A DNA stretch of 35,256 nt. Source: a virus. The notes beneath the pieces are model-generated. The model had not been told where the DNA came from and searched no databases. It saw nothing but the letters and a program-made list of their open reading frames with translations. Made by a program: the position numbers and the translations under genes. The DNA is taken from the IMG/VR virus record IMGVR_UViG_3300031716_000031. The stretch is one strand, 5' to 3'. This document shows positions 5,433-22,725 of the stretch, one piece after another (within the stretch, counting starts at the first letter, position 1; every line of letters begins with the position of its first letter).

Positions 5433-5526
5433 CCATCAACAATGATACAATCATATAAGATTAAATAAGTAACACCGACTAGACGGACTCTAGGTCGCCA
5501 TTAAGGCAGTGATAGTAGAGGTAGAT

Positions 5527-6090
5527 ATGTGGTTGTATTACACCTATGAGCTAATCGACCCCAGAGACAACAAGGTCTTTTATGTTGGTAAGGGTAAAGG
5601 CAACCGTATGCTTGCTCATGAGAAGGAAGCCAAGAAAGGCGTTGTTTCTCCTAAGTGCAATAAGATTCGTGAAATCCTAAAAGCACGCAAAGAGGTACTA
5701 AAGCGCCAAGTAGCCTTCTTTAATGAAGAACAAGCCGCTTATGACCATGAGACAGATATGATTTCTGCTTATGGGCTTAAGAATCTAACCAATATCATGC
5801 CTGGCGGCCAGAAGGCTTGGGATACGCGAGTAGAAAGCCGATCCAAGCAATCAGAACGTAAGGAATATCAATCCAATCTTGATATGTGGCTGAAGATTGT
5901 TGCTTACTCAGTTCATATAGCAAGAGGATGGAGGCCTAATACAAATGGCCGTCCATGGACTGATGCGATAGTTAATGCACTAAAGCGTGCCGGATACGAT
6001 GCCTTCTTGGATAAGGCATTGAAAGATTTCAAAAAAGATGATGTTGTTTCTGGTTTATTGAAGCGTGGCGTTAAGCTTACGTTTGTCTAA
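5527..6090 (+). CDS. GIY-YIG-family nuclease (free-standing homing-endonuclease-like)
   Basis: YTYELIDPRDNKVFYVGKGKGNRMLAHEKE matches the GIY...YVG...R...H core of the GIY-YIG fold. ATG 5527 has GAGG 6 nt upstream. The track start at 5509 is GTG. Confidence 0.65.
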   Translation: MWLYYTYELIDPRDNKVFYVGKGKGNRMLAHEKEAKKGVVSPKCNKIREILKARKEVLKRQVAFFNEEQAAYDHETDMISAYGLKNLTNIMPGGQKAWDTRVESRSKQSERKEYQSNLDMWLKIVAYSVHIARGWRPNTNGRPWTDAIVNALKRAGYDAFLDKALKDFKKDDVVSGLLKRGVKLTFV

Positions 6091-6413: not shown

Positions 6414-7635
6414 TATCCCAACTGCAAAAGTATTTGAGCCTCTTCTCCATGACGCAAGATATAAAGGCGTACATGGTGGAAGAGCGTCAGGTAAGACCCA
6501 CTTCTTTGGGGACTTGTGGCTTGATGAAAGTGTCCGACTTAAGCTTGACTTCGTATGTGTCCGAGAAACGCTTAAATCATTGGAGTTCTCAGTAAAGAAA
6601 CTCCTAGAAGAGAAAATCCAGAAATACAACGCTGGACTCTATTTCGAAGTACAAGATCGGCGTATCCTTTCTGCAAAAGGAGGCGTTACTATCTTTGAAG
6701 GCATGCAGAACCATACAGCCGATTCCATCAAGTCTCTAGAAGGCTTCGATAGAGCATGGTTTACAGAAGCACAGCGAGCTAGTGATAAGAGTCTCACATT
6801 ATTGAGGCCTACTATCCGTAAGCCAGGCTCTCAACTGTGGTTTGATTGGAACCCAGATGCTGAAGACGATCCTATCGATCTTCTATTACGAGGGGTGACA
6901 ATTCCAACAGGTGCAATCGTAATTCAAGCGAATTACACTGATAATCCTTGGCTGCCACAAGAAATGCTCGATGAGATGGAATACGACAAGCGTCGTGATC
7001 CAGATAAATATGCTCATGTATGGCTAGGAGGCTATCGAACCAATAGTGAAGCTAGAGTCTTCAAGAATTGGAGTATCGAAGAATTCGAGCGTCCCGCTGG
7101 AACGATATTCAGGTTTGGAGCAGACTGGGGATTCGCCAGTGATCCATCAGTATTAGTAAGAAGTTCTATTGAAGGAAACAGGCTTTACATAGACCATGAG
7201 GCTTATATGGTTGGATGTGAGATTGTTAATCTTCCCGAGTTGTTTATGTCGATTCCTGAGGCTGAGAAATGGCCTATTACAGCTGATTCTGCAAGACCTG
7301 AAACGATTAGCCATATGCAGAAACATGGCTTCCCTAAGATATTTGCTGCTATTAAAGGTGCCGGTTCATTAGAAGATGGTGTGGAATGGTTGAAGTCATT
7401 TGATATCGTCGTGCATCCTAGGTGTGTTCATACGATTGATGAACTCACCATGTATTCCTATAAGACAGACCCATTGACTGGGAAAGTACTTCCAATTCTA
7501 GAAGACAAGAAGAATCACGTCATAGATGCACTTAGATATGCCTGTGAAGGAGCTAGACGAGCCAAGAAGCCGACTAATAAAGAAAAGGCTGAAGAACGTT
7601 TCTCATACCAAGGAGTTGGCGGATGGATGGCTTAA
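6379..7635 (+). CDS. terL: Terminase large subunit (Terminase_3 / PBSX-like)
   Basis: The Walker A-like motif HGGRASGKTHFF is near the N-terminus, with a nuclease-domain-like C-terminal half (KKNHVIDALRYA). An alternative TTG start at 6409 overlaps the upstream TGA. Confidence 0.85.
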   Translation: MLKCVVPLSILDIPTAKVFEPLLHDARYKGVHGGRASGKTHFFGDLWLDESVRLKLDFVCVRETLKSLEFSVKKLLEEKIQKYNAGLYFEVQDRRILSAKGGVTIFEGMQNHTADSIKSLEGFDRAWFTEAQRASDKSLTLLRPTIRKPGSQLWFDWNPDAEDDPIDLLLRGVTIPTGAIVIQANYTDNPWLPQEMLDEMEYDKRRDPDKYAHVWLGGYRTNSEARVFKNWSIEEFERPAGTIFRFGADWGFASDPSVLVRSSIEGNRLYIDHEAYMVGCEIVNLPELFMSIPEAEKWPITADSARPETISHMQKHGFPKIFAAIKGAGSLEDGVEWLKSFDIVVHPRCVHTIDELTMYSYKTDPLTGKVLPILEDKKNHVIDALRYACEGARRAKKPTNKEKAEERFSYQGVGGWMA

Positions 7636-7991
7636 GCGAGATTGGCAGATATTGGATAAATGAGGGAACGACAGTTCAAGTCGTCATCAATCCTGAACTT
7701 CCATCACACCTAAGAGTAAGAGAGGTTGTTGCTTTATTCACAGAACCAGAGCAAAGAAACAAAGGATATGCCACCGAACTGATGAAAGAAGTTTGCGCAG
7801 AAGCAGATAAGTGTGCAATAGTGCTGATATTGAAACCTGAAAGGTACGGAAATACAGGCGGACATAAGAATCTGCAAGCTTTCTATCAGAAATTAGGATT
7901 TGTCAAAGTCCAGCAAAAGCCCGTCTTGATGGCAAGAGCCCCTGTATTCAATCCAGTACGCAAGATTATAGTGGAGTCGCTGAGTGGCTGA
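7623..7991 (+). CDS. Minimal GNAT-family N-acetyltransferase (122 aa)
   Basis: The motif A-like EQRNKGYATELMKEVCAEADK and motif B-like LQAFYQKLGFVKV are present. AGGAG lies 7 nt upstream of ATG 7623. The gene overlaps both the TerL end and the portal start. Confidence 0.6.
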   Translation: MDGLSEIGRYWINEGTTVQVVINPELPSHLRVREVVALFTEPEQRNKGYATELMKEVCAEADKCAIVLILKPERYGNTGGHKNLQAFYQKLGFVKVQQKPVLMARAPVFNPVRKIIVESLSG

Positions 7992-10167
7992 AGAAGATAC
8001 CAAGACAGATAGTGTAGTCGATATTGCCAAGCAAAGATTCATGCGGGCAAAGGCTGCTTATTCCTTGTCTCGTCAACTTGCGATTGATGACACTCGCTTT
8101 GCGCTTGGTGATTCGGATAATGGTTGGCAATGGCCCGAAGGTATCCGTCAGTCTCGTCAGATAGAGCAAAAAGTATGCCTGACAGTCAACATGACGGCCC
8201 AGCATGTTAACCAGACTGTCAATAACATGCGTCAGAATCGGCCTCAATGCCGAGTTCTCCCCGTAGATAGTGGATCAGACAAGAAGACTGCCGAGATTTT
8301 CGGTGGACTTATTCGCAATATTCAGACTTCTAGTAACGCAGATGATGCCCATGATGTGGCGGCGGAGCATTCTTGCATTGGTGGGGAAGGTTACTGGCGA
8401 ATCCTAACTGAATATGAGAATGAGCGTTCGTTTAACCAACGAATTGTCATTCAAATGCTGCCCAATCCTCAGCTTGTCTACGTTGACGACATGGCTAAGG
8501 AACTGGATAAGTCTGATGCTGAATGGGGAATGATCTTTGACGACATCTCCAAAGCCCAATGTAAGCGAGATTATCCAGAGGTAGACCCAACTTCATGGGT
8601 TGTCGATCCCGGTGGCTGGGTAAAGGAAGATACGGTACGGATCGCTGAGTACTATTACTGTACGTATATTCCAGACACGGCCATTCTTTTGGCGGATGGA
8701 ACGAATTATCTCAAGAGCGAGCTTCAAAAAGGCCAATACGAACAGGCTAAAGAATCTGGCCTGATTGTTGATGAGCGTGAAACCACTCGTAAAACATGGA
8801 AGTGGTGCAAGCTTGTTGGTGGTCATGATGAACCGTTAGAAGTCCGTGATTGGCCCGGTAAGTTCCTCCCTATTGTTTCTGCTGTGGGTAAACAGTTGAA
8901 TGTCGATGGGGAAGTTGTAACCAAGGGAATGGTTCGTGACCTGAAAGACCCGGCGCGAATGGTGAATTTCAGCTATTCCGAAGCCGTCCAGACCATTGCA
9001 CTCCAGAACAAGATTCCCTACATTGCTGCGGCTGAAGCAATTGAAGGGTATGAGAATGTCTGGAAGATGGCTAATACCACGAATCTTGCCGTTCTCCCTT
9101 ATAACGAGTGGGATGATGAAGGTCGCCACATTACGCCGCCTGCACGTCAGCAACCGAGTGTAATGCCTGCTGCGCAGGTTCAAATGCTTCAGCTTTCTAC
9201 AGACCAAATGCGTGCTGCGTCAGGTCAACAGAATGCCAACTTTGGAATTAAGTCAGAAGCCTCTAGTGGTGTTGGGATTCAACGCCTTAAAGCCCAAGGC
9301 GAGATTGCTACTTTCCACTTCCCGGATAATCAAGTGCGTGCGCTTCGATATGAAGCACGTATTCTTATCGATTTGATCCCAAAGGTCTACGACACGAAAC
9401 GCGTTGTGCGTATTCTCGGGATAGATGGTAAGGAAGAGAAGGTCGAAGTCAATCCTGACATGGAAAGTGCCTATCAGGAAGACTACACCGAGGAAGATGT
9501 TAAGAAGATTTTCAATCCTAACGTCGGTCAATACGATGTTGTTATCGATACTGGCCCAAGCTTCCAGACACAAAGGCAAGAATCGTTCCAGTTCATGACT
9601 GAGCTGGCAAAGACTGATCCGGGTTTCATGCAGAACTATGGCGATATTGTTTTCCGTGCATCGGATGTTCCTTATTCTGACCAATTGGCTAAACGTGCCG
9701 AGAAGTTGCTTCCGCCAGCACTTCAAGAGGCCAAGGGTCAACCACAGATTCCGCCTCAAGTACAGCAACAAGTCCAAGAAATGCAAGGACAAATCCAGCA
9801 AATGAGCACTGCACTTGAAAACGCTCATGTGGAAGTTACCCAACTGGAAGAAGAGAAAAAGAAATACGATGCTGAAATGGAAATCAAGCGGATTGAAGCC
9901 AATACCAAGGCTTATTCGGCGATTACAGATCGATTGAAGGTGCTTGGCCCATTGCTGACACCTGAAGAGGTGGCAGGATTGGCAGAAGAAACCAAGCGAG
10001 AAGCCATGGAACAACCTGATCCGGGTAATGCACCTTCAGAATCGATGGGCATTCCAGAACAAGAAATGCAAGAACAGAATGAGGCACCGATTCAGCCTCC
10101 TGTTATGAATCCACCACCCACGGAGCCACCACCACAATCGGCTCCACCACCAATTGAGGCTCAATGA
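7984..10167 (+). CDS. Portal protein, P22 gp1-like
   Basis: It resembles P22 portal as I recall it: MAEEDTK vs MADNENR, RIAEYYY vs IAEFYEV, and TGPSFQTQRQES vs VGPSFQSMKQQ. It has a long C-terminal coiled-coil (barrel-like) region and a Pro-rich tail. The start is GTG with GGAG upstream. Confidence 0.85.
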   Translation: MAEEDTKTDSVVDIAKQRFMRAKAAYSLSRQLAIDDTRFALGDSDNGWQWPEGIRQSRQIEQKVCLTVNMTAQHVNQTVNNMRQNRPQCRVLPVDSGSDKKTAEIFGGLIRNIQTSSNADDAHDVAAEHSCIGGEGYWRILTEYENERSFNQRIVIQMLPNPQLVYVDDMAKELDKSDAEWGMIFDDISKAQCKRDYPEVDPTSWVVDPGGWVKEDTVRIAEYYYCTYIPDTAILLADGTNYLKSELQKGQYEQAKESGLIVDERETTRKTWKWCKLVGGHDEPLEVRDWPGKFLPIVSAVGKQLNVDGEVVTKGMVRDLKDPARMVNFSYSEAVQTIALQNKIPYIAAAEAIEGYENVWKMANTTNLAVLPYNEWDDEGRHITPPARQQPSVMPAAQVQMLQLSTDQMRAASGQQNANFGIKSEASSGVGIQRLKAQGEIATFHFPDNQVRALRYEARILIDLIPKVYDTKRVVRILGIDGKEEKVEVNPDMESAYQEDYTEEDVKKIFNPNVGQYDVVIDTGPSFQTQRQESFQFMTELAKTDPGFMQNYGDIVFRASDVPYSDQLAKRAEKLLPPALQEAKGQPQIPPQVQQQVQEMQGQIQQMSTALENAHVEVTQLEEEKKKYDAEMEIKRIEANTKAYSAITDRLKVLGPLLTPEEVAGLAEETKREAMEQPDPGNAPSESMGIPEQEMQEQNEAPIQPPVMNPPPTEPPPQSAPPPIEAQ

Positions 10168-10982
10168 TGGCTATCCTAACTACAATCATCAAGTCGAATG
10201 TGTTTGACGAATATGGCCGACTGCTTCCTGTCGGTTCTGCCTATACCCCTTACAACGACGATTATGCAAAGTCACTCGTCCAAACCCTAAAGGCACTCGA
10301 TACCAATGGGGTATTGGGCTATCCAATCCCTACCATGGCGAATGTCTCAATGCCGTGGGGAAGTCGCCCTAATCCTCTCCTGAATATTGGTTCTCAGATT
10401 CGCTTCACCGATGTAGGGGGTGGAACTGGAAATGTGTCTGGCGGTTCGGTATTTGTTGCAAATGCTTTCCGCTGGAAGCCATTGAATGCAAGTATCGTGC
10501 TAGATTCAGTCGATACAGCCAATTCGGCGATTGCCAACACCACTGAGCAGAATCTAAATCCTAACCATGTGGTTATTCCCGCTGGTGTAGTTGGGAACTT
10601 TGATCGTCTGCGTTTATGGGTATCTCTTTCAAAGAATGGATCGGTTGATACTTCTTTGATCCAGATCAAATATGGCCCATTGGGTACGACTGCTGATCCA
10701 GTTCTCGCAACGATTACTACTCTCGCGACCACCAATCAGTCCTTGGGTTGCTTGCTTGAGTTCAAGCGTTTGTCTGCAACTACCATGCAAAAGCAAGGTA
10801 ATGCATCGACGGATGTGAGCTATAACGGCTCAAGTGGAGGTGCTTATCCCGGTGCGGTCACAGTGGCTAACATGGATACGAATCCCATGTATCTATCTAT
10901 CACTTCAACCATGACGACGGGTGCTGAAATCTGCACTTTGCAAGATTACACTCTTGAATTGTACGCAACGGATTCCCAATAA
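10164..10982 (+). CDS. Hypothetical late protein (272 aa) between portal and scaffold
   Basis: ATGA overlap with the portal stop. The sequence is Ser/Thr/Asn-rich and looks beta-rich. No motif recognised. Confidence 0.7.
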   Translation: MMAILTTIIKSNVFDEYGRLLPVGSAYTPYNDDYAKSLVQTLKALDTNGVLGYPIPTMANVSMPWGSRPNPLLNIGSQIRFTDVGGGTGNVSGGSVFVANAFRWKPLNASIVLDSVDTANSAIANTTEQNLNPNHVVIPAGVVGNFDRLRLWVSLSKNGSVDTSLIQIKYGPLGTTADPVLATITTLATTNQSLGCLLEFKRLSATTMQKQGNASTDVSYNGSSGGAYPGAVTVANMDTNPMYLSITSTMTTGAEICTLQDYTLELYATDSQ

Positions 10983-14411: not shown

Positions 14412-14882
14412 TTACCTAGTGCAACCTTCGTGGATAAGCCTTTTTGCTCGCATAAAGGCCTCTGCGGCTTCTTCAACGGTGTCATATGTTCCGATGCGGA
14501 TGTTAGCTAAAAATTTTCCTTTTGGATTTCTGGTAACTCCGTACGGTAAATCATTTTCCTTACGTCTAATAGCATAACGATTCTGCATATTTACCGACAT
14601 AGAAACATCGCGAAGATTTGAAATTTTGTTATTGAGTTTGTCGCCGTCAATATGGTCAATTTGCCCACTGGGCCATACACCATATGTAATAAACCATGCA
14701 AGCCGATGGAGTTTTATCTGCTCTTTGTCTATTGTTGCTTTTTTATAACCATGCTGAATAGTTCCTACATCAGCACCTTCTTTGACTTTTCCTTGGCTTA
14801 CTTTCCAAGTGAAATTACCAGAGGATGGGTTATATGAAAGCAAATGGTTAGCACGCTCGGTAGTAAGTTTTGGAATTTTCAT
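14412..14882 (-). CDS. HNH (HNH_3) + AP2-domain homing endonuclease
   Basis: HRLAWFITYG...IDHIDGDKLNNKISNLRDVSMSVNMQN is the HNH_3 core. YGVTRNPKGKFLANIRIGTYDTVEEAAEAF is AP2-like. It is the only minus-strand gene in the late arm. ATG 14882 is preferred over the track start 14921. Confidence 0.8.
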   Translation of the reverse strand: MKIPKLTTERANHLLSYNPSSGNFTWKVSQGKVKEGADVGTIQHGYKKATIDKEQIKLHRLAWFITYGVWPSGQIDHIDGDKLNNKISNLRDVSMSVNMQNRYAIRRKENDLPYGVTRNPKGKFLANIRIGTYDTVEEAAEAFMRAKRLIHEGCTR

Positions 14883-14939
14883 TAGGTAATGTCCTTGTAT
14901 GTACAAAATATATTGTAGCACTTTTTAAAGGAAAGTATC

Positions 14940-15381: not shown

Positions 15382-16086
15382 ATGACGACTGCCATTGATA
15401 TTATCAAGCGTTCTCTTCGTTCAATTAATGTCATTGGACGAATGGAAGCTCCTACTGCTGAAATGGCAGCCGATGCGCTTGATACATTGAATGATATGTT
15501 GGGGACATGGAGCAATGAAACGCTCCTTGTTTTCCAGAATACGCTCGTTAACTTTCCACTAGTTCCGGGTCAAAACAATTACACGATTGGTACGGGAGGA
15601 AATTTCAATATTCCTCGGCCAACTTCAATAGAAAGTGGGTATATCCACTGGAATAATGTTGATTATCCGCTTTCAATGATAAATACTGATCAATATGATG
15701 GTATTCCAGTAAAAAGTAGTCCAAATCAAATCCCCTATGCGATGTTGATTTATCCAGACTTCCCACTGACTACCATCAAATTGTTTCCGACGCCAAATGA
15801 TTCGACTGCGCAGCTTTTTCTAGAAATAAAGAACCCATTTACTGAATTTGTTAATCTCACGGATACAGTGGATATGCCACCGGGTTATGTAAATGCGCTG
15901 TATAGGAATTTATCTATGGAATTGGCCCCTGAATACGGAGTACAACTTAATCCTTCGATAAGTTTGATGGCGTCTAATTCTAAAAAGTGGTTGAAACGGA
16001 CGAATTACGAGACATTAATCATGGAATTGCCTGAAGAACTACCGACAGGTCGTGGGGCTTGGGATCAAAATGGGAACTATGTATGA
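15382..16086 (+). CDS. Head-to-tail adaptor, P22 gp4-like
   Basis: IIKRSLRSINVIGRMEAPTAEMAADALDTLNDMLGTW parallels P22 gp4 DLVRAALRKLGV...QDAVDDLEAMMAEW. NALYRNLSMELAPEYGV parallels AVFHNLACRIAPDYAL. Confidence 0.65.
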   Translation: MTTAIDIIKRSLRSINVIGRMEAPTAEMAADALDTLNDMLGTWSNETLLVFQNTLVNFPLVPGQNNYTIGTGGNFNIPRPTSIESGYIHWNNVDYPLSMINTDQYDGIPVKSSPNQIPYAMLIYPDFPLTTIKLFPTPNDSTAQLFLEIKNPFTEFVNLTDTVDMPPGYVNALYRNLSMELAPEYGVQLNPSISLMASNSKKWLKRTNYETLIMELPEELPTGRGAWDQNGNYV

Positions 16087-16652
16087 ATAATTTTCAGGTA
16101 TTGGCTACGGGTGTTGATGTATTACCGCTTTTGCTTGCAATTAAACGCCGACCTGAATTGTGGAAAGAAGATACTTACTTGAGGGATTATCCCCAAGGCC
16201 CATTTGGTGAGATTGAATCGATCATGCTTCGGTTTCCACCAAGAAGTGTGTATGAAACAGAAGAGGAATTAAAGAAAGCTCAAGTCACGATTGATCAGCA
16301 TGAAAATGTCGATCAACCTGCTTACAAGATTCTTCATGAAGCTCGACCATTAGTAATGGATTTGATGCATCGTGTGGGAGGAGAAAGGCTTGGGCGCGTG
16401 ATGATCAATAAAATTGCACCGGGTGGAAAGATTTACCCGCATGCAGACACTAAAGATCATTGCGAGTATTACACTCGATTTCACCTTGTACTATGGGGAA
16501 AACCGGGTGCTGTGATTCGGTGTGATAAAGAACAAATGGATATGAAAACTGGAGATTGTTTTTGGTTTAACAATGCACTTGAACACGAAGTTATCAATAA
16601 CTCGGGTGAAGAACGTATTTCGATGGTGATCGACATAAGGACTTCTCGATGA
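16083..16652 (+). CDS. Aspartyl/asparaginyl beta-hydroxylase-family (cupin, Fe(II)/2OG oxygenase-like) protein
   Basis: INKIAPGGKIYPHADTKDH...RFHLVL...GDCFWFNNALEHEVINNSGEERISMVIDI fits the Asp/Asn-hydroxylase family pattern, with H-x-D and a distal H. ATGA overlaps occur at both gene ends. Confidence 0.65.
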   Translation: MNNFQVLATGVDVLPLLLAIKRRPELWKEDTYLRDYPQGPFGEIESIMLRFPPRSVYETEEELKKAQVTIDQHENVDQPAYKILHEARPLVMDLMHRVGGERLGRVMINKIAPGGKIYPHADTKDHCEYYTRFHLVLWGKPGAVIRCDKEQMDMKTGDCFWFNNALEHEVINNSGEERISMVIDIRTSR

Positions 16653-17104
16653 TTACTTGCCATGTAGAGAGCTTTGAGGAACGTCTGGAAGAGCTTAAGA
16701 CGCTTTTGCCTGCTCACTATAAGGAATTGGCACTTAATCAAGACAAAGTCCCGCTATCGCCTCAATATCACGTTTATATTGAAAGAGAGCATCAAGGTAG
16801 TTTGTTGTTTGTCACACTGAGGGATTCCGGGGAAATGGTGGGTTATCTGATTGGATTCATCGCTCCCGGACTTCATTATCAAACCTGTCTTACATGTATC
16901 ACGGATATTTTTTATGTCCGACAAGATAAACGTGGTAGCCGCGCTGGTGTGAAATTGCTCAAGTTTGTTGAAGAAGAATTGAAGCGACGTGGCGTTCAGC
17001 GTTGGTTTATTGGATCAAAGAAACACAAGGATGCATCTCCATTATTTGAATACATGGGGATGAAAGAAGTAGAAACGACTCATAGCAAATGGATTGGGGA
17101 TTAA
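16649..17104 (+). CDS. GNAT-family N-acetyltransferase (151 aa)
   Basis: FYVRQDKRGSRAGVKLLKFVEEELKRRGVQRWF matches GNAT motif A (R-x-x-G-x-x-A/G followed by a helix). ATGA overlap with the hydroxylase gene. Confidence 0.65.
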   Translation: MITCHVESFEERLEELKTLLPAHYKELALNQDKVPLSPQYHVYIEREHQGSLLFVTLRDSGEMVGYLIGFIAPGLHYQTCLTCITDIFYVRQDKRGSRAGVKLLKFVEEELKRRGVQRWFIGSKKHKDASPLFEYMGMKEVETTHSKWIGD

Positions 17105-17105
17105 C

Positions 17106-18110
17106 ATGGTCGCTGCTGCTGTTGTCGGCTCAGCCGTCGTCGGAGGTGTAGTTTCATCTAATGCAGCCAGTAGTGCAGCAGATGCGCAAACGCAAGCTGC
17201 TAATCAAGCTGATGCTACCCAACGCTATATGTATGATCAAACGCGAGCAGACAATGCTCCGTTTCTTCAAACAGGAACTGCGGCCAATAGCAAGCTTGCG
17301 TATCTTCTTGGGATCGGTGGTTCACCTACAGGATCATATTCATCTTCCTCTACCTTAACTCCTAATGATCTTGTAGATACAAGTTCAGGAGACTGGAAGC
17401 CTAATGCTCAACTATATGCGACTGATCCAGCATATAAGTCAGCATGGGATAGTTTTATCGCTGGTCATATTGCTCAATTTGGTGATATGCCAAATTCTGC
17501 AAAAGGTTCTGATCTTGCCAAAACTATCTCTGCATTAAGTCAATCTGTTGATCTTAATTCCTACAATCAACAACAACAGAATCAAGTTTCCAATGATCCG
17601 AATTATGGATCATTGCTTAAATCATTCTCTGCCCAAGACTTGGCGAATGATCCTATCTATCAAAGTACCTATCAAAATGCGCTCGATACAGGAACCAAAG
17701 CTGCTAATCAACAAGCAAGTGCAACTGGTAGCTTGTTGTCTGGAAACACACTGAAAGCGCTCACAAGGTTTGGTGCAAATACCGCAGCAACCTATGGTAA
17801 TGATGCCTATAACCGTTACAATACCAATCAAACTAATACATATAACCGATTGGCTGGAGTAAGTGGTACAGGTCAAACGGCTGCTGCCCAAGTAGGCGCT
17901 TCTGGACAAAACACCGCTAATGCGATCAGTAATAACCAAACGGCACTCGGAAATGCACGGGGTGCCTCGGCGATTGCGCAAGGAAATGCATTCAACAATG
18001 CACTGAGTACGGGGGTTAATGCTTACCAGAATCAGTCATATTTGAATTCTCTGAATAGTGGATATCAACAAGCTCCTGCACCTGTGACTAACTTGGATAC
18101 TTATAGCTAA
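17106..18110 (+). CDS. Internal virion / ejection-type protein 1
   Basis: The N-terminus is hydrophobic and Gly/Ala/Val-rich (VAAAVVGSAVVGGVV). The rest is Q/N/A/T-rich low-complexity sequence, typical of podovirus ejection proteins. ATG follows TAA-C after the GNAT gene. Confidence 0.5.
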   Translation: MVAAAVVGSAVVGGVVSSNAASSAADAQTQAANQADATQRYMYDQTRADNAPFLQTGTAANSKLAYLLGIGGSPTGSYSSSSTLTPNDLVDTSSGDWKPNAQLYATDPAYKSAWDSFIAGHIAQFGDMPNSAKGSDLAKTISALSQSVDLNSYNQQQQNQVSNDPNYGSLLKSFSAQDLANDPIYQSTYQNALDTGTKAANQQASATGSLLSGNTLKALTRFGANTAATYGNDAYNRYNTNQTNTYNRLAGVSGTGQTAAAQVGASGQNTANAISNNQTALGNARGASAIAQGNAFNNALSTGVNAYQNQSYLNSLNSGYQQAPAPVTNLDTYS

Positions 18111-18112
18111 TC

Positions 18113-19315
18113 ATGCCTATCGACGCTTCCATTTATAGTCAAATCCGCCAACCGGATATTGAACAGCCAACGAATGCTTTGGCGAATATCACTCAACTGC
18201 AAAATGCTCAAACTCAAAATAAGCTGGGCAATCTTCAATTGCAGAATGCCACGGATGCTCTGACAGCACAAAACGCTCTCTCGGCTGCTTATCAGGCTGC
18301 TTATGATCCGACTACTGGACAGGTTGATAGCAAGAAATTGATGAGCACCTTGGCAACTTCCGGCCAAGGCTCACAACTACCTACCGTTCAGAAAACTTTG
18401 CTTGATCAAGCAAAGGCTCAACGAGAAGCCGACAAAGCAAAACTTGAAGGCGTTAAACAACACATAGAACTCCAAGGACAGCTTCTTGGTGGTGTAACTG
18501 ATCAGACCTCTTGGGATAACGCACTTCGTGTTGCTCAACAAAATGGAATTGATACCAGTCAATTTCCTACGACTTACAATCCTCAGGTCGTTAATCAACT
18601 TCGTTTGCGCGCTTTAAGTGCGAAAGATCAAGTTGATAATGAATGGAAGTCAAAAGGCTACGATCTTGATGTCAAAAAGTTTGATTATCAAAGACAAAAT
18701 GACGCGGCTAATCGTGCAGTTACTATTCGTGGTCAAGATAAACCTCAATACGATCCGACTACGGGTGCATTGATTGATATACGGACTGGAACTGCTAAGC
18801 CTGTTATTGGGCCGGATGGTCAACCTATTTCCGTTGGCGGAAAGGCTTTGACTGAAGATCAAGCCAAGGCCGCAGCATGGTTGGCTCAATCTGAAAACGC
18901 CTTTAAGAATATGCAGTCTGCTGTCAAACAATCTAAGAGTGCGTCTACACCGGGATTGGGTGATGCTGTGAGTTCTTTACCGTTGATGGATGCGGTTGGT
19001 AATTACATTACGCCAGAAGCTCGCCAAAAATATAAACAAGCTTCTAGTTCTCTCTCAGAAGCACTTCTTCGTGCTGCTACTGGTGCAGGGGTTAATGAAA
19101 GCGAAGCACGCCAAAAAATTGCCGAAATTACTCCACAATTTGGCGATTCAGATGCGGTTATCAAGCAAAAGATGGATTCAATTCCAGTCTATATTGAATC
19201 TCTCCGAGGTCGAGCTTCACCCAAGGGGGCTGCTAATGCTGAAAAGGCAGTCTCTAAAGCTGGTTCTCAAGATGCTTCCTCAAATATTGATGCATTGTTG
19301 AATAAATACAAATAA
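18113..19315 (+). CDS. Internal virion / ejection-type protein 2
   Basis: The N-terminal half is Q/N/A-rich and coiled-coil-like. It is tightly linked to the flanking genes (2-nt gaps). Confidence 0.45.
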   Translation: MPIDASIYSQIRQPDIEQPTNALANITQLQNAQTQNKLGNLQLQNATDALTAQNALSAAYQAAYDPTTGQVDSKKLMSTLATSGQGSQLPTVQKTLLDQAKAQREADKAKLEGVKQHIELQGQLLGGVTDQTSWDNALRVAQQNGIDTSQFPTTYNPQVVNQLRLRALSAKDQVDNEWKSKGYDLDVKKFDYQRQNDAANRAVTIRGQDKPQYDPTTGALIDIRTGTAKPVIGPDGQPISVGGKALTEDQAKAAAWLAQSENAFKNMQSAVKQSKSASTPGLGDAVSSLPLMDAVGNYITPEARQKYKQASSSLSEALLRAATGAGVNESEARQKIAEITPQFGDSDAVIKQKMDSIPVYIESLRGRASPKGAANAEKAVSKAGSQDASSNIDALLNKYK

Positions 19316-19317
19316 TC

Positions 19318-20994
19318 ATGGCTGATATTAATCAACTTCAGGATGCGCTTATCAAAGCTGATGCAGCTGGTAATACCGACGATGCACGCGCTTTGGCGGA
19401 TGAGATTCGCCGCCTGCGAAACATGAGTCCTACAGTCGAATCTCCAACGACTGAACCTTCTTTGTTGGATAGGATTAAACAGACCAATCGTGATATTGGT
19501 GGTGGATTTCTTAGAGGAGCAGCATCGATTGGATCGACGATCCTGCTGCCTGCTGACATGATCAATCAAAAGTTACGCGGAGAAGATTTCTTTTCTTTGA
19601 AAGATAATCTTCAACGTCGTGCTGATGTTGATCGTGGTCTTCAATTGATGGGATCGAATCCAGAATCTGGTGCTTATAAAAACGCGAAAGTTGATACAGA
19701 AATTTTAGGTACTTTGGGAGTGGGGCCAGCTATTGCAGCAGCTTCTAGAGCTATCCCTATAATTAGTGCATTAGCCGAATCTGCTCCAGTCATTCAACGA
19801 GGAATCAATGCTATTGAATCGGGTGGCATGAATATTGGTTCAGGTGGCTCAAATATTTGGAATGCACTGACTCGTTCAGCGGGCGGCGCGATTACTGGCG
19901 GTGCTTCTACAGGTCTAATTGAGCCTGATCAAGCTAAATCTGGCGCTATTATCGGGTCTATTCTTCCTTTAGCCCTTAAGAGTGCTGGTGTGGTGGGTAA
20001 TAGTGTAGGCTCTACTGTAGGAAATAAACCACTCGATCCTAATTTGCTAGCTGCTGCTAAAAGAGCTAGTGATCTTGGGTATGTCATCCCTCCCACTCAA
20101 GTCAATCCAACGATTAAAAATAGATTGTTGGAAGGCTTTGCCGGAAAGATTAGTACTGCACAGAATGCAAGTGCTAAAAATTCGGATGTAACAAATGCTT
20201 TGGCTGCGGCGTCGATTGGGCTTCCTACCGATACCAAGATCAATCCAGAAACGCTTGATGCTGTTAGAAAAGAAGCTGGAAAAGCATATGAGGCTGTTTC
20301 TAAATTACCAATTCAGACGGCCCAGAAGGCAGATACGTTGCTTAACAAACCAGCAATTGAAGAGATAAATCCTAAAGAAATGGTATTTGATCTTCGAAAT
20401 GCTCGAAATGACGCAACGGCTTGGTATAACTCTTACGCGAGAACTGCTGATCCTGATTCCTTAGCGAAAGCCCAAGCTGCAAAATCGTCTGCTGAGAAGA
20501 TTCAAAAGAGTCTGGAAGATTACGCGAAAAGTGTTGGACGTGACGATCTTATTCCAGCAATGGTAGATGCACGTCAATTGATTGCTAAGACTTATTCAAT
20601 TGAGAAGGCATTTAATCCAACGACTGGGACAGTCGATGCTAGGAAACTCGGAGCAATGCTAGAAAAGGGTAAACCTCTCAGTGGTGGTTTGAAGGATGCT
20701 GCTGAATTTGCAAACCGTTTTCCTAAGGCTGCTCAAACGCCTGAAAAAATGGGAAGTCTCCCGCAAGTCAGTCCTTTAGATTACATGGGTGCTGGAACTC
20801 TTTCAGGCGTTATGGGGAATCCGCTTGCAATGGCAGGCGTCCTTGCTCGGCCCGCAGCAAGAGCGGCAATTCTCTCTCGTCCAGTGCAGCGTGGATTAAC
20901 GAAACAGAATCCCAATAGGCTAACTGAAATCCTTGCTGATCCTGAGCTTCAAAAGCTATTTGTACGAAGCTCAACTGCTACTAGCGCCCAGTGA
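19318..20994 (+). CDS. Internal virion / ejection-type protein 3
   Basis: 558 aa, Ala/Gly-rich with hydrophobic stretches. It is third in a run of three, analogous to P22 gp7/gp20/gp16 by number and composition only. Confidence 0.45.
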   Translation: MADINQLQDALIKADAAGNTDDARALADEIRRLRNMSPTVESPTTEPSLLDRIKQTNRDIGGGFLRGAASIGSTILLPADMINQKLRGEDFFSLKDNLQRRADVDRGLQLMGSNPESGAYKNAKVDTEILGTLGVGPAIAAASRAIPIISALAESAPVIQRGINAIESGGMNIGSGGSNIWNALTRSAGGAITGGASTGLIEPDQAKSGAIIGSILPLALKSAGVVGNSVGSTVGNKPLDPNLLAAAKRASDLGYVIPPTQVNPTIKNRLLEGFAGKISTAQNASAKNSDVTNALAAASIGLPTDTKINPETLDAVRKEAGKAYEAVSKLPIQTAQKADTLLNKPAIEEINPKEMVFDLRNARNDATAWYNSYARTADPDSLAKAQAAKSSAEKIQKSLEDYAKSVGRDDLIPAMVDARQLIAKTYSIEKAFNPTTGTVDARKLGAMLEKGKPLSGGLKDAAEFANRFPKAAQTPEKMGSLPQVSPLDYMGAGTLSGVMGNPLAMAGVLARPAARAAILSRPVQRGLTKQNPNRLTEILADPELQKLFVRSSTATSAQ

Positions 20995-21087: not shown

Positions 21088-22725
21088 ATGTCAATTATTA
21101 CCTTATTTGGGCTTGGACAGACTGGTAAATCTTTAGCAGTCACAGCCCAATCTCACCTTAATCTTTATTGTGAAGTCAATCCACAAGGTGATAAAGGTAC
21201 CACAACATTCTACGGAACCCCGGGGCTTATTCTATTCGAAAGTTTCGGTGAAACGCCAATTCGCGGAATTTTAGGCATAGGTGATCTTATTTATGTAGTC
21301 CATCGTGGGACTTTATGGAAGCTTGATAATTCCGGTGTAAAGACCATGTTGGGGACGCTTTTGACCTCAAGTGGGCGCGTTTCCATGACTTATAATGGAG
21401 TTCAACTCGCGATCACAGATGGAACTGGATATTACGTTTATGTCCTGACACAAACTCCACAACCTATTCAAAGCATCACTAATGTAGGTACGACGGCGAC
21501 ATTAAATACGACTTCACCTCATCTCAGATATACAGGTGAAACAGTCACTATTTCTGGAGCAACGCCTGCGGCTTATAACGGAACCTTCCAAATCACTGTT
21601 GTTGATGCGGATACTTTCACCTATACGATGCTGAGCAATCCGGGCGGAAACGCAACGGTAGTAGGTTCGTATACTGTTACTTCGTCTTTTATCACGGTGA
21701 CAAGCAATCTCATTGGAACTCCCATTGATATAACTTTTGGTGATGGATATGGGATTTTGGCTTATGCAAATGGTCAATTCCAGAAAACAAGTGCTTACGA
21801 CTTTACTACGCTTGATGCTCTCGATTTTGCCACGGCAGAATCAAATCCAGACGGTCTTGTAAGAGATTTGTATGATCATGGTGAGCTTATTCTTTTTGGA
21901 ACGAATACGGTTGAATTCTGGAGCAATACAGGGGGGCAGGATTTTCCCTACTCAAATCAACGTGGAACCACTCTTCAATATGGATTAGCGGCTAAATGGT
22001 CGCTTGTTCAATATAACGATTCAATCGCTGCACTTTTCAAGAATGCGATGGGTCAAGTTCAAGTCATGAGGATGGCTGGACACGCACTTCAAGTTATTAG
22101 CACGCCAGAAATTGACTACATCATCAATAAATATTCGACTAAATCGGATGCGACTGCCTACTGTTATATGTTGGGTGGTCATCCTATGCTTCAAATTAAT
22201 TTTCCCAGTCAACAGAAATCTTGGCTTTATGATGGCTTGACTCAGATGTGGTCGCCCCTTGAATCAGGGTTGAATGGAGATAGACATCGTGGAGAGATAA
22301 TTATTGATTACTTGAATAGTCCGCGTGTTACTGATTATTCAAATGGAAATATCTATACCTTGGATGCTGATACTTACACAGATAATGGTGTTCCCATTCC
22401 CCGTGAAATTGTCACAAAAACTGTTTACACGGGTCTGAACAAGAGAATTGCAGTCCATCGTTTAGGTGTTGATTGCCAAACAGGAAATGGATTGATCAAT
22501 GGTCAAGGTTCGAATCCACAAATCATGCTTCAGGTCTCTAAAGACTCAGGAAGAACATGGAGCAGCGAACTTTGGGTTTCGATGGGGAAAATTGGTGAAT
22601 ACGTTCGAAGAGCCTATTGGACGTGTTTGGGTTCTTCTTATTTCTGGACATTCAAGTTCAGAATAACCGATCCCGTTCCTGTCGTATTGACTTTTACTGA
22701 TGCAGATTCAGAGGTGAGAAATTGA
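21088..22725 (+). CDS. Tail hub / packaged-DNA stabilisation protein, P22 gp10-like, with an inserted domain
   Basis: The motifs parallel P22 gp10 as I recall it: SSGRVSMTYNG vs GSGRVSMAHG, AESNPDGLV vs AESQPDGII, and NTVEFWSNTGG vs STIEYFSLTGA. An extra segment at about aa 121..205 contains ETVTISGATPAAYNGTFQITVVDADTFTY. Confidence 0.65.
   Translation: MSIITLFGLGQTGKSLAVTAQSHLNLYCEVNPQGDKGTTTFYGTPGLILFESFGETPIRGILGIGDLIYVVHRGTLWKLDNSGVKTMLGTLLTSSGRVSMTYNGVQLAITDGTGYYVYVLTQTPQPIQSITNVGTTATLNTTSPHLRYTGETVTISGATPAAYNGTFQITVVDADTFTYTMLSNPGGNATVVGSYTVTSSFITVTSNLIGTPIDITFGDGYGILAYANGQFQKTSAYDFTTLDALDFATAESNPDGLVRDLYDHGELILFGTNTVEFWSNTGGQDFPYSNQRGTTLQYGLAAKWSLVQYNDSIAALFKNAMGQVQVMRMAGHALQVISTPEIDYIINKYSTKSDATAYCYMLGGHPMLQINFPSQQKSWLYDGLTQMWSPLESGLNGDRHRGEIIIDYLNSPRVTDYSNGNIYTLDADTYTDNGVPIPREIVTKTVYTGLNKRIAVHRLGVDCQTGNGLINGQGSNPQIMLQVSKDSGRTWSSELWVSMGKIGEYVRRAYWTCLGSSYFWTFKFRITDPVPVVLTFTDADSEVRN

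Follow-up and report, generated by a model that had tools for sequence, protein, structure and literature searches.

A predicted 2-oxoglutarate oxygenase and GNAT acetyltransferase pair as a candidate two-enzyme version of IVP-A in a P22-type virion operon

The window, which is the whole 35,256-nucleotide stretch of viral DNA analysed here (IMG/VR virus record IMGVR_UViG_3300031716_000031), carries two small enzyme genes directly before the first ejection-protein gene of a P22-type virion operon. Gene A, which we call HYD (16083..16652, + strand), codes for a predicted Fe(II)/2-oxoglutarate (2OG) oxygenase of 189 aa of the PF05118 family (Pfam, alignment, AF2 and Foldseek), and gene B (16649..17104, + strand) codes for a predicted GNAT acetyltransferase of 151 aa in the IVP-A slot, that is, the position of T7 gp13 and P22 gp14 (Pfam, PHROG, AF2, Foldseek and a hidden Markov model, HMM). 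We propose, with a probability of roughly one half, that HYD and the GNAT together serve the maturation or assembly of ejection proteins, as a two-enzyme form of IVP-A. In the literature searched there was no description of the oxygenase as a partner of IVP-A, or of the oxygenase-GNAT pair as a unit. Of the undescribed module put forward in a first-pass annotation of this DNA, the oxygenase partner and the oxygenase-GNAT unit therefore appear to be the new part, while the GNAT slot and its family were already known (PMC4819975).

Folds and catalytic signatures of the two predicted enzymes

HYD scored 59.5 bits against PF05118 (Asp_Arg_Hydrox, cutoff 22.6) and 28.1 against Cupin_2 (cutoff 27.2), and the precomputed Pfam annotation was PF05118 in all the homologs listed. 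Residues H120, D122, H168 and R178 were invariant in an alignment of 41 sequences, which included homologs with 31–51% identity. From this alignment, H120, D122 and H168 are predicted to be the classical 2-His-1-carboxylate iron triad and R178 the 2-oxoglutarate-binding Arg; the H-x-D...H triad that had been named as a candidate from the letters was thus found intact, together with the putative 2OG-binding residue. The AF2 model of HYD had a pLDDT of 83.6 overall and of 88–96 in the C-terminal beta core, and a Foldseek search of the PDB with this model returned many 2OG oxygenases of the double-stranded beta-helix (DSBH) fold with a probability of 1.0. The best matches were proline hydroxylases, AspH and others (7e-9 to 1e-6), and the matches as a whole comprised free-proline hydroxylases, AspH, a nucleoside-antibiotic hydroxylase, protein prolyl hydroxylases and, more weakly, AlkB, with TM scores of about 0.5–0.6. 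Among the prolyl hydroxylases, L-proline cis-4-hydroxylase (4p7w), proline 3-hydroxylase (1e5r), the Pseudomonas EF-Tu prolyl hydroxylase (4iw3) and vCPH of PBCV-1 (5c5t) were all among the best fold matches (7e-9 to 4e-6), but at TM scores of 0.5–0.6 and identities of 14–19% they are too distant for a transfer of substrate. Judging from these models the fold of HYD is certain, and the fold matches do not settle its substrate class.

The oxygenase domain of human AspH aligned to HYD with E = 9e-6 over a shared C-terminal DSBH core, and the 2OG-binding Arg in its strand 'ssfRLIFIVDV' aligned with R178. In contrast, AspH has a Gly where HYD has D122, giving an atypical two-His H-x-G site as compared with the H-x-D of HYD. 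HYD also differs from AspH orthologs in being a single 189-aa domain that carries neither a TPR domain nor a membrane anchor, and it was not assigned to them. The first-pass annotation had mentioned LpxO and hydroxylation of lipid A. This idea did not hold: the NCBIfam equivalog score for LpxO was 20 bits (cutoff 500) and that for OlsC was 16 bits (cutoff 450), and no transmembrane segment was found in HYD (maximum 19-residue hydropathy of 1.36). We therefore rejected HYD as an LpxO or OlsC lipid hydroxylase, the scores being far under the cutoffs and a membrane anchor being absent. The N-terminal segment W27-KEDTYLRDYPQGPF-41 was family-specific, nearly invariant and predicted to be flexible. 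As a separate observation, the HYD domain is joined to another cupin domain (about 300 aa) in some of the proteins P0259, P0272, P0289, P0292 and P0333, and among the same five it also occurs within proteins of 580–965 aa with two PF05118-like stretches.

Gene B passed the cutoffs of two acetyltransferase families (PF00583 GNAT, 31.7 with a cutoff of 20.7; PF13673, 27.1 with a cutoff of 23.6) and matched phrog_1249, annotated as 'acetyltransferase'. Its AF2 model (pLDDT 91.8) superposed on GNATs solved with bound coenzyme A (CoA) with TM scores of 0.70–0.75, and the CoA site was superposed as well (Foldseek). In the CoA loop, R95-G-S-R-A-G100, both R95 and G100 were invariant, while the central Gly of the Q/R-x-x-G-x-G/A motif was not conserved; in motif B, Phe133 stands in place of the usual Tyr. 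The polar residues H23, E26, H76, Y77, D86 and K124 were invariant across clades at 26–77% identity, and characterised GNAT enzymes do not have this set. Many of the nearest solved GNATs were protein N-terminal acetyltransferases (RimI, Ard1/Naa, Naa60 and NatC), and the best fold matches, which comprised N-terminal and lysine acetyltransferases of proteins (RimI, Ard1/Naa and HP0935), also included the aminoglycoside acetyltransferase AAC(3)-I. The NCBIfam profile of RimI was matched weakly (19 bits, cutoff 86), which ruled out gene B as a RimI equivalog. Pfam, the AF2 models and Foldseek searches with these predicted structures thus upheld both the cupin-oxygenase and the GNAT fold of the first-pass annotation, and the peptides that it had quoted (IYPHADTKDH, FNNALEHEVINNSGEERISMVIDI and RGSRAGVKLLKFVEEELKRRGV) were all present in the translations.

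Coupling, fusion and conservation of the pair

The adjacency of the two genes was obligate in the environmental phages: in the 75 IMG/VR loci found via HYD, the GNAT was the next gene in every locus that extended far enough. Starting from the other gene, HYD lay directly upstream in 22/22 of the GNATs with at least 70% identity, and one GNAT at 60% identity had no HYD upstream. The two reading frames shared a 4-base ATGA overlap in 62 of 79 related loci. In the window this overlap joins the stop of gene A to the start of gene B (16649..16652, + strand), a second ATGA joins the stop of the adaptor gene to the start of gene A (16083..16086, + strand), and a TAA-C-ATG junction links gene B to the first ejection-protein gene (17102..17108, + strand), all as described in the first-pass annotation. 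PHROG, Pfam and the survey of loci bore out the tight coupling, and also the location of the pair in a virion operon of the P22 type, immediately ahead of the gene for the first ejection protein.

In some lineages the two proteins are one. A profile search of 1.84 billion representatives returned many proteins of 336–385 aa, and those examined were HYD-linker-GNAT fusions with the motifs of the GNAT family, falling into several separate clusters at 50% identity. The fusion gene of locus L096 lies downstream of a gp10-type hub; the gene that directly follows it belongs to phrog_598, and two further large open reading frames (ORFs) come next. In the fusion phage (L096 120..2942 and 10308..10778; L098 3710..6532) a Cupin_1/Cupin_2 protein, a PfkB-family kinase and a 518-aa ORF are found beside the fusion on the opposite strand, and a CTP_transf_like nucleotidyltransferase is encoded further on; these four could belong to a sugar-nucleotide or modification pathway.

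The pair also moved together with the ejection genes. The tail hub preceded the pair in 51 loci and followed the ejection genes in 9 loci (the window type), and in both gene orders the pair stayed beside the ejection genes. In the cultured Pseudomonas phage PfAn1 the pair (48%/51% identity) is directly 5' of a phrog_598 gp7 homolog, and in phage MW202665, which has HYD only, HYD is directly 5' of a protein annotated as 'DNA ejection'. When pairwise-identity matrices were compared, HYD correlated with the GNAT at r = 0.59, as against 0.29–0.43 for the comparisons with tail hub or capsid.

HYD and the GNAT each had more than 1,400 homolog clusters at 90% identity, mostly on contigs of 30–43 kb, and are therefore not chance ORFs. 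The P22 gp14 family had 88 clusters at 90% identity in a collection of 5.8 billion proteins, nearly all from Enterobacterales, so that in environmental data the oxygenase-bearing clade is more diverse than the P22 gp14 family. Prophage copies of the pair were found in Oxalobacteraceae, Burkholderia, Acinetobacter and Dokdonella, and among approximately 50,700 deposited phage genomes the pair was present only in PfAn1 and DC33. When the region was compared by megablast with 50,697 phage genomes, no match was found; its relatives were seen at the protein level only.

Both enzymes were far better conserved than the structural proteins around them. Measured against the window in 87 loci, median identity was 67% for HYD and 69% for the GNAT, as compared with 34% for the coat protein, 34% for the portal, 33% for the adaptor, 29% for the Hc3 tail hub and 35% for ejection protein 1. 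Identity at fourfold-degenerate sites was 0.23–0.24, at or below chance. Because synonymous sites were saturated, the conservation of HYD and the GNAT reflects very strong purifying selection over an old divergence, and recent transfer of a cassette was ruled out as its cause.

The IVP-A slot and a candidate role for the pair

The slot in which gene B lies has been described before (PMC4819975, PMC6775973, PMC10386132). IVP-A (T7 gp13) is needed for T7 morphogenesis and does not remain in the virion (Hardies et al. 2016, PMC4819975), and the virion proteome of the T7-like phage phiPsa17 detected every structural homolog except gp13 (PMC4517105). T7 gp13 matches acetyltransferases by HHpred, and an acetyltransferase-family non-structural gene is present at the IVP-A position in VpV262- and SIO1-type podophages (PMC4819975), the gene in SIO1 being pc40; IVPA is also homologous to P22 gene 14 (PMC10386132). 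The first-pass annotation held that enzymes are not found at this position in P22-type morphogenesis clusters, which is therefore wrong for the GNAT (PMC4819975, PMC10386132).

In the genomes compared, a small gene directly 5' of IVP-B was found in the window, PfAn1, L096, VpV262 and Zobellviridae. P22 gene 14 abuts gene 7 and T7 gene 13 is in the equivalent place; the product of the former (gp14, DUF2824, 'head morphogenesis') has 151 aa, exactly the length of gene B, and its gene is likewise 5' of that for gp7. Zobellviridae Vibrio phages, an oyster-associated phage and MW202796 have related GNATs without the oxygenase, which lie between a tail tube or hub gene and the genes of the internal virion proteins. 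The HMM of the gene B family matched ORF-S of VpV262 with E = 6e-19 (hhalign 97.8%, E = 9.5e-13), and when the gene B model was searched against BFVD with Foldseek, the VpV262 protein Q8LT55 ranked second (6e-10). A 132-aa protein of Citrobacter phage CR8, annotated as 'host specificity protein A', was also matched (1e-5, TM 0.53–0.59); by its size and name it is probably a gp13 homolog. Gene B is thus in the known IVP-A slot by its position, and these sequence and model matches place it in a family of the VpV262 type. In T7, P22, VpV262 and Zobellviridae, unlike in the window, IVP-A has no coupled or fused 2OG oxygenase.

The link of gene B to gp13 and gp14 comes from the literature (HHpred), and we do not claim sequence homology to them. 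T7 gp13 and P22 gp14 match only their own Pfam families (PF11090 and PF11039), whereas gene B passes GNAT cutoffs. A bridge to T7 gp13 through PHROG was tried and discarded, as T7 gp13 belongs to phrog_308 and not to the weakly matched phrog_2746. P22 gp14 (L095 8911..9366) and gene B both begin with M-I-T and share T-x-x-x-C-x-T...F...R-x-x-R-x-G near the presumed CoA loop; BLASTP between the two gave E = 2.1, which is not significant alone.

We propose that HYD and the GNAT form one functional unit of the ejection-protein (internal virion protein) module, in which the GNAT would be the counterpart of IVP-A (T7 gp13, P22 gp14) and HYD a clade-specific partner, co-translated with the GNAT and in some lineages fused to it. 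Late in infection, HYD and the GNAT would form a complex, and this complex would act on new ejection proteins, most probably the first of them, the gp7-like protein, before or during loading of the procapsid. HYD would hydroxylate a side chain with O2 and 2-oxoglutarate as cosubstrates, and the GNAT would transfer an acetyl group from acetyl-CoA to an amine, for which the conserved Val/Ala N-terminus is one candidate. As an outcome, the ejection proteins would become competent for packaging or for later membrane insertion. Here we infer complex formation, catalytic activity, ejection proteins as the substrate and the chemistry at any residue; the position of the pair makes the ejection proteins a plausible substrate.

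Ejection protein 1 begins with M-V-A-A-A-V-V-G, an N-terminus that recurs throughout the clade. A start of the form MVAA[AVI] was present in 46/68 unique loci with HYD (61/68 with a looser pattern) and in 0/11 loci without it, and it was kept at the protein level while its codons varied. A P22 database record lists the N-terminus of gp7 as processed. The conserved positions of the gp7-like proteins were only Gly, Ala, Pro and Gln, common to relatives without HYD, and the amino-acid composition was similar in clades with and without HYD. The hydrophobic stretch M-V-A-A-A-V-V-G-S-A-V-V-G-G (17106..17150, with equivalents in L004-L120) is the best-conserved part of this protein, which is about 35% identical among phages with HYD. 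At some loci ejection protein 1 appears to start at a GTG one codon later.

A more specific version, which we put forward only tentatively and regard as doubtful, is that the pair marks the gp7-like protein by hydroxylation and acetylation, possibly at M-V-A-A-A, and that these marks are needed for procapsid loading or for refolding into the outer-membrane pore. If true, a phage DNA ejectosome would for the first time have a described step of enzymatic maturation after translation, and the IVP-A (T7 gene 13/P22 gene 14) slot would gain the biochemical function that has been missing for decades. Little is understood of how ejection proteins stay soluble, are loaded and become primed, and the mechanism of IVP-A in T7 and P22, a non-structural protein that particles need in order to be infectious, has never been worked out. 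A canonical GNAT and an intact oxygenase under stronger selection than the capsid hint that the slot is enzymatic, and their conservation and fusions give this old question a testable biochemical form. Finding a modification would give ejectosome assembly a chemical layer, with a phage enzyme pair that has a defined protein substrate.

Several observations weigh against the pair being a two-enzyme IVP-A that acts on ejection proteins. GNATs occur without the oxygenase in 14/14 MW202796-like loci, in Zobellviridae and in L121, and the pair of Limnohabitans phage DC33 is placed not beside the ejection genes but between terminase and portal (L002 7986-9058). Comparison of gene B with P22 gp14 and T7 gp13 by BLASTP and hhalign, broadened to a 32-sequence GNAT profile against a 19-sequence gp14 profile, found nothing significant (shallow profiles, E = 0.27 and 0.39). 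On the side of the proposed client, the correlation of MVAAA with HYD is confounded by shared ancestry, the gp7-like proteins had no conserved Asp, Asn or Lys specific to phages with HYD, and the literature searched held no experimental evidence of covalent modification of podophage ejection proteins. In addition, the nearest solved oxygenase to HYD is a free-L-proline hydroxylase, and the enzymes are far better conserved than their proposed clients, which could mean a conserved host or small-molecule substrate.

The last two points are also the basis of the alternative that survives best, though we consider it unlikely: the substrate of the pair would be a metabolite or host molecule that is conserved (amino acid, polyamine, lipid or sugar of the envelope, or protein of the host), its place in the late operon would only serve timing and dosage, and it would amount to an auxiliary metabolic or host-modifying module. 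HYD and the GNAT are very highly conserved among phages that infect Burkholderiales, Acinetobacter and Xanthomonadales, while the structural proteins diverge, the fold matches of HYD include the nucleoside-antibiotic hydroxylase as well as the free-proline enzymes, and those of the GNAT include small-molecule acetyltransferases. The DC33 pair fits such a target by its location, and the authors of that genome class it as an auxiliary metabolic gene (AMG). However, the pair keeps its place directly 5' of the gp7 homolog despite changes in gene order and fusion, the GNAT is in the IVP-A family, which is morphogenetic in T7, and late, translationally coupled expression fits virion assembly better than host reprogramming. 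The weak likeness of HYD to LpxO and OlsC in NCBIfam could also be counted for a host target, but both scores are far under the cutoffs and the protein has no membrane anchor.

It is less probable still that the GNAT is a non-catalytic chaperone or scaffold for ejection proteins, with only the oxygenase being catalytic or both proteins being mainly binding modules; T7 gp13 and P22 gp14 may themselves be non-catalytic in this way. T7 gp13 and P22 gp14 function although they no longer match the GNAT models of Pfam, and the loss of the central Gly in the CoA-loop motif and the Tyr to Phe133 change in motif B would agree with such a role. In contrast, gene B passes the Pfam GNAT cutoffs, it keeps R95, G100 and its invariant polar residues across clades, and it is paired with an oxygenase in which all four catalytic residues are invariant.

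We regard it as improbable that the enzymes are packaged in the capsid and ejected with the DNA to act on host targets at the start of infection. Against this stand the reported absence of IVP-A from T7 virions (PMC4819975) and of gp13 from the detected virion proteins of phiPsa17 (PMC4517105). The genes are, however, embedded among those of ejected proteins, and podophage internal proteins can carry enzyme domains, such as the transglycosylase annotated in the ejection block of PfAn1; even so, no packaging signal was evident, and an enzyme dependent on O2, Fe and 2OG that must unfold to pass a narrow tail channel would be an unlikely effector. Modification of phage DNA near packaging, by base hydroxylation followed by acylation, is very improbable: AlkB and ALKBH5 were among the fold matches of HYD (approximately 1e-5) and GNAT-fold enzymes can modify DNA (Mu Mom), but hydroxylases of amino acids and proteins outscored AlkB by two to three orders of magnitude, the genes lie outside the replication module, no nucleic-acid-binding domain is present and the GNAT belongs to the IVP-A family.

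The operon around the pair

The late genes of the window are arranged in the order terminase, a small GNAT-like ORF, P22-type portal, scaffold, P22-type coat, Ad3 adaptor, HYD and GNAT, followed by the phrog_598 'DNA ejection' gene, two large ORFs and the gp10-type tail hub. A close relative has Pfam matches to P22_portal, P22_CoatProtein and Phage_stabilise in the same order, the last of them (PF11134) in the ortholog of the tail hub. Upstream of the pair, the head-to-tail adaptor of the P22 gp4/Ad3 type (15382..16086, + strand) matched phrog_12985 (2.4e-51) and phrog_637, 'head-tail adaptor Ad3' (2e-13), and P22 gene 4 carries the Ad3 annotation. We set the start of gene A at the ATG at 16083, inside the TGA of the adaptor gene, where 40/40 aligned homologs begin with M-N-F; the program-made list of ORFs had placed it at a TTG at 16059, and the homologs favour 16083.

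Downstream of the pair, ejection protein 1 (17106..18110, + strand), the putative client of the P22 gp7/IVP-B type, starts at an ATG a single base past the TAA of gene B and matched phrog_598 'DNA ejection' with 3.8e-27; P22 gp7 itself is a member of phrog_598 (2e-95). The next two ORFs had no family match in the Pfam/PHROG annotation and are assigned by synteny as ejection protein 2 at the gp20/IVP-C position (18113..19315, + strand) and ejection protein 3 at the gp16/IVP-D position (19318..20994, + strand). The size and position of the former fit P22 gene 20, a relative having a 385-aa ORF there, and the position of the latter fits P22 gene 16. The tail hub of the P22 gp10/Hc3 type (21088..22725, + strand; phrog_578 'head closure Hc3', 7.8e-97) forms the 3' boundary of the HYD-GNAT-ejection block in the gene order of the window. 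Between 15382 and 21000 on the + strand, a search for internal promoters gave only weak consensus matches, at or below the number expected from shuffled sequence and none of them convincing, and no convincing internal terminator was found. PADLOC gave no matches, and a link to defence or anti-defence was accordingly dropped.

A second GNAT-like ORF of 122 aa (7623..7991, + strand) lies between the large terminase and the portal and overlaps both. It matched PF13508 (8e-9) and phrog_1249 (5e-7) and was kept in the close relative L137 (1827-2186), while BLASTP found no similarity between it and the GNAT at 16649. The slot between terminase and portal that it fills in the window is the one occupied by the HYD-GNAT pair in DC33. 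Two genes related to homing endonucleases were also seen. An ORF just 5' of the large terminase gene (5509..6090, + strand) matched phrog_5356 (1e-21) and phrog_314 (7e-7), and an HNH homing-endonuclease gene (14412..14921, − strand; phrog_99, 6.6e-46) lies between the coat gene and a 132-aa ORF. The HNH gene is missing in L137, which is otherwise collinear (coat end at 8246, next ORF at 8276), and it appears to be a mobile gene that entered the late operon recently.

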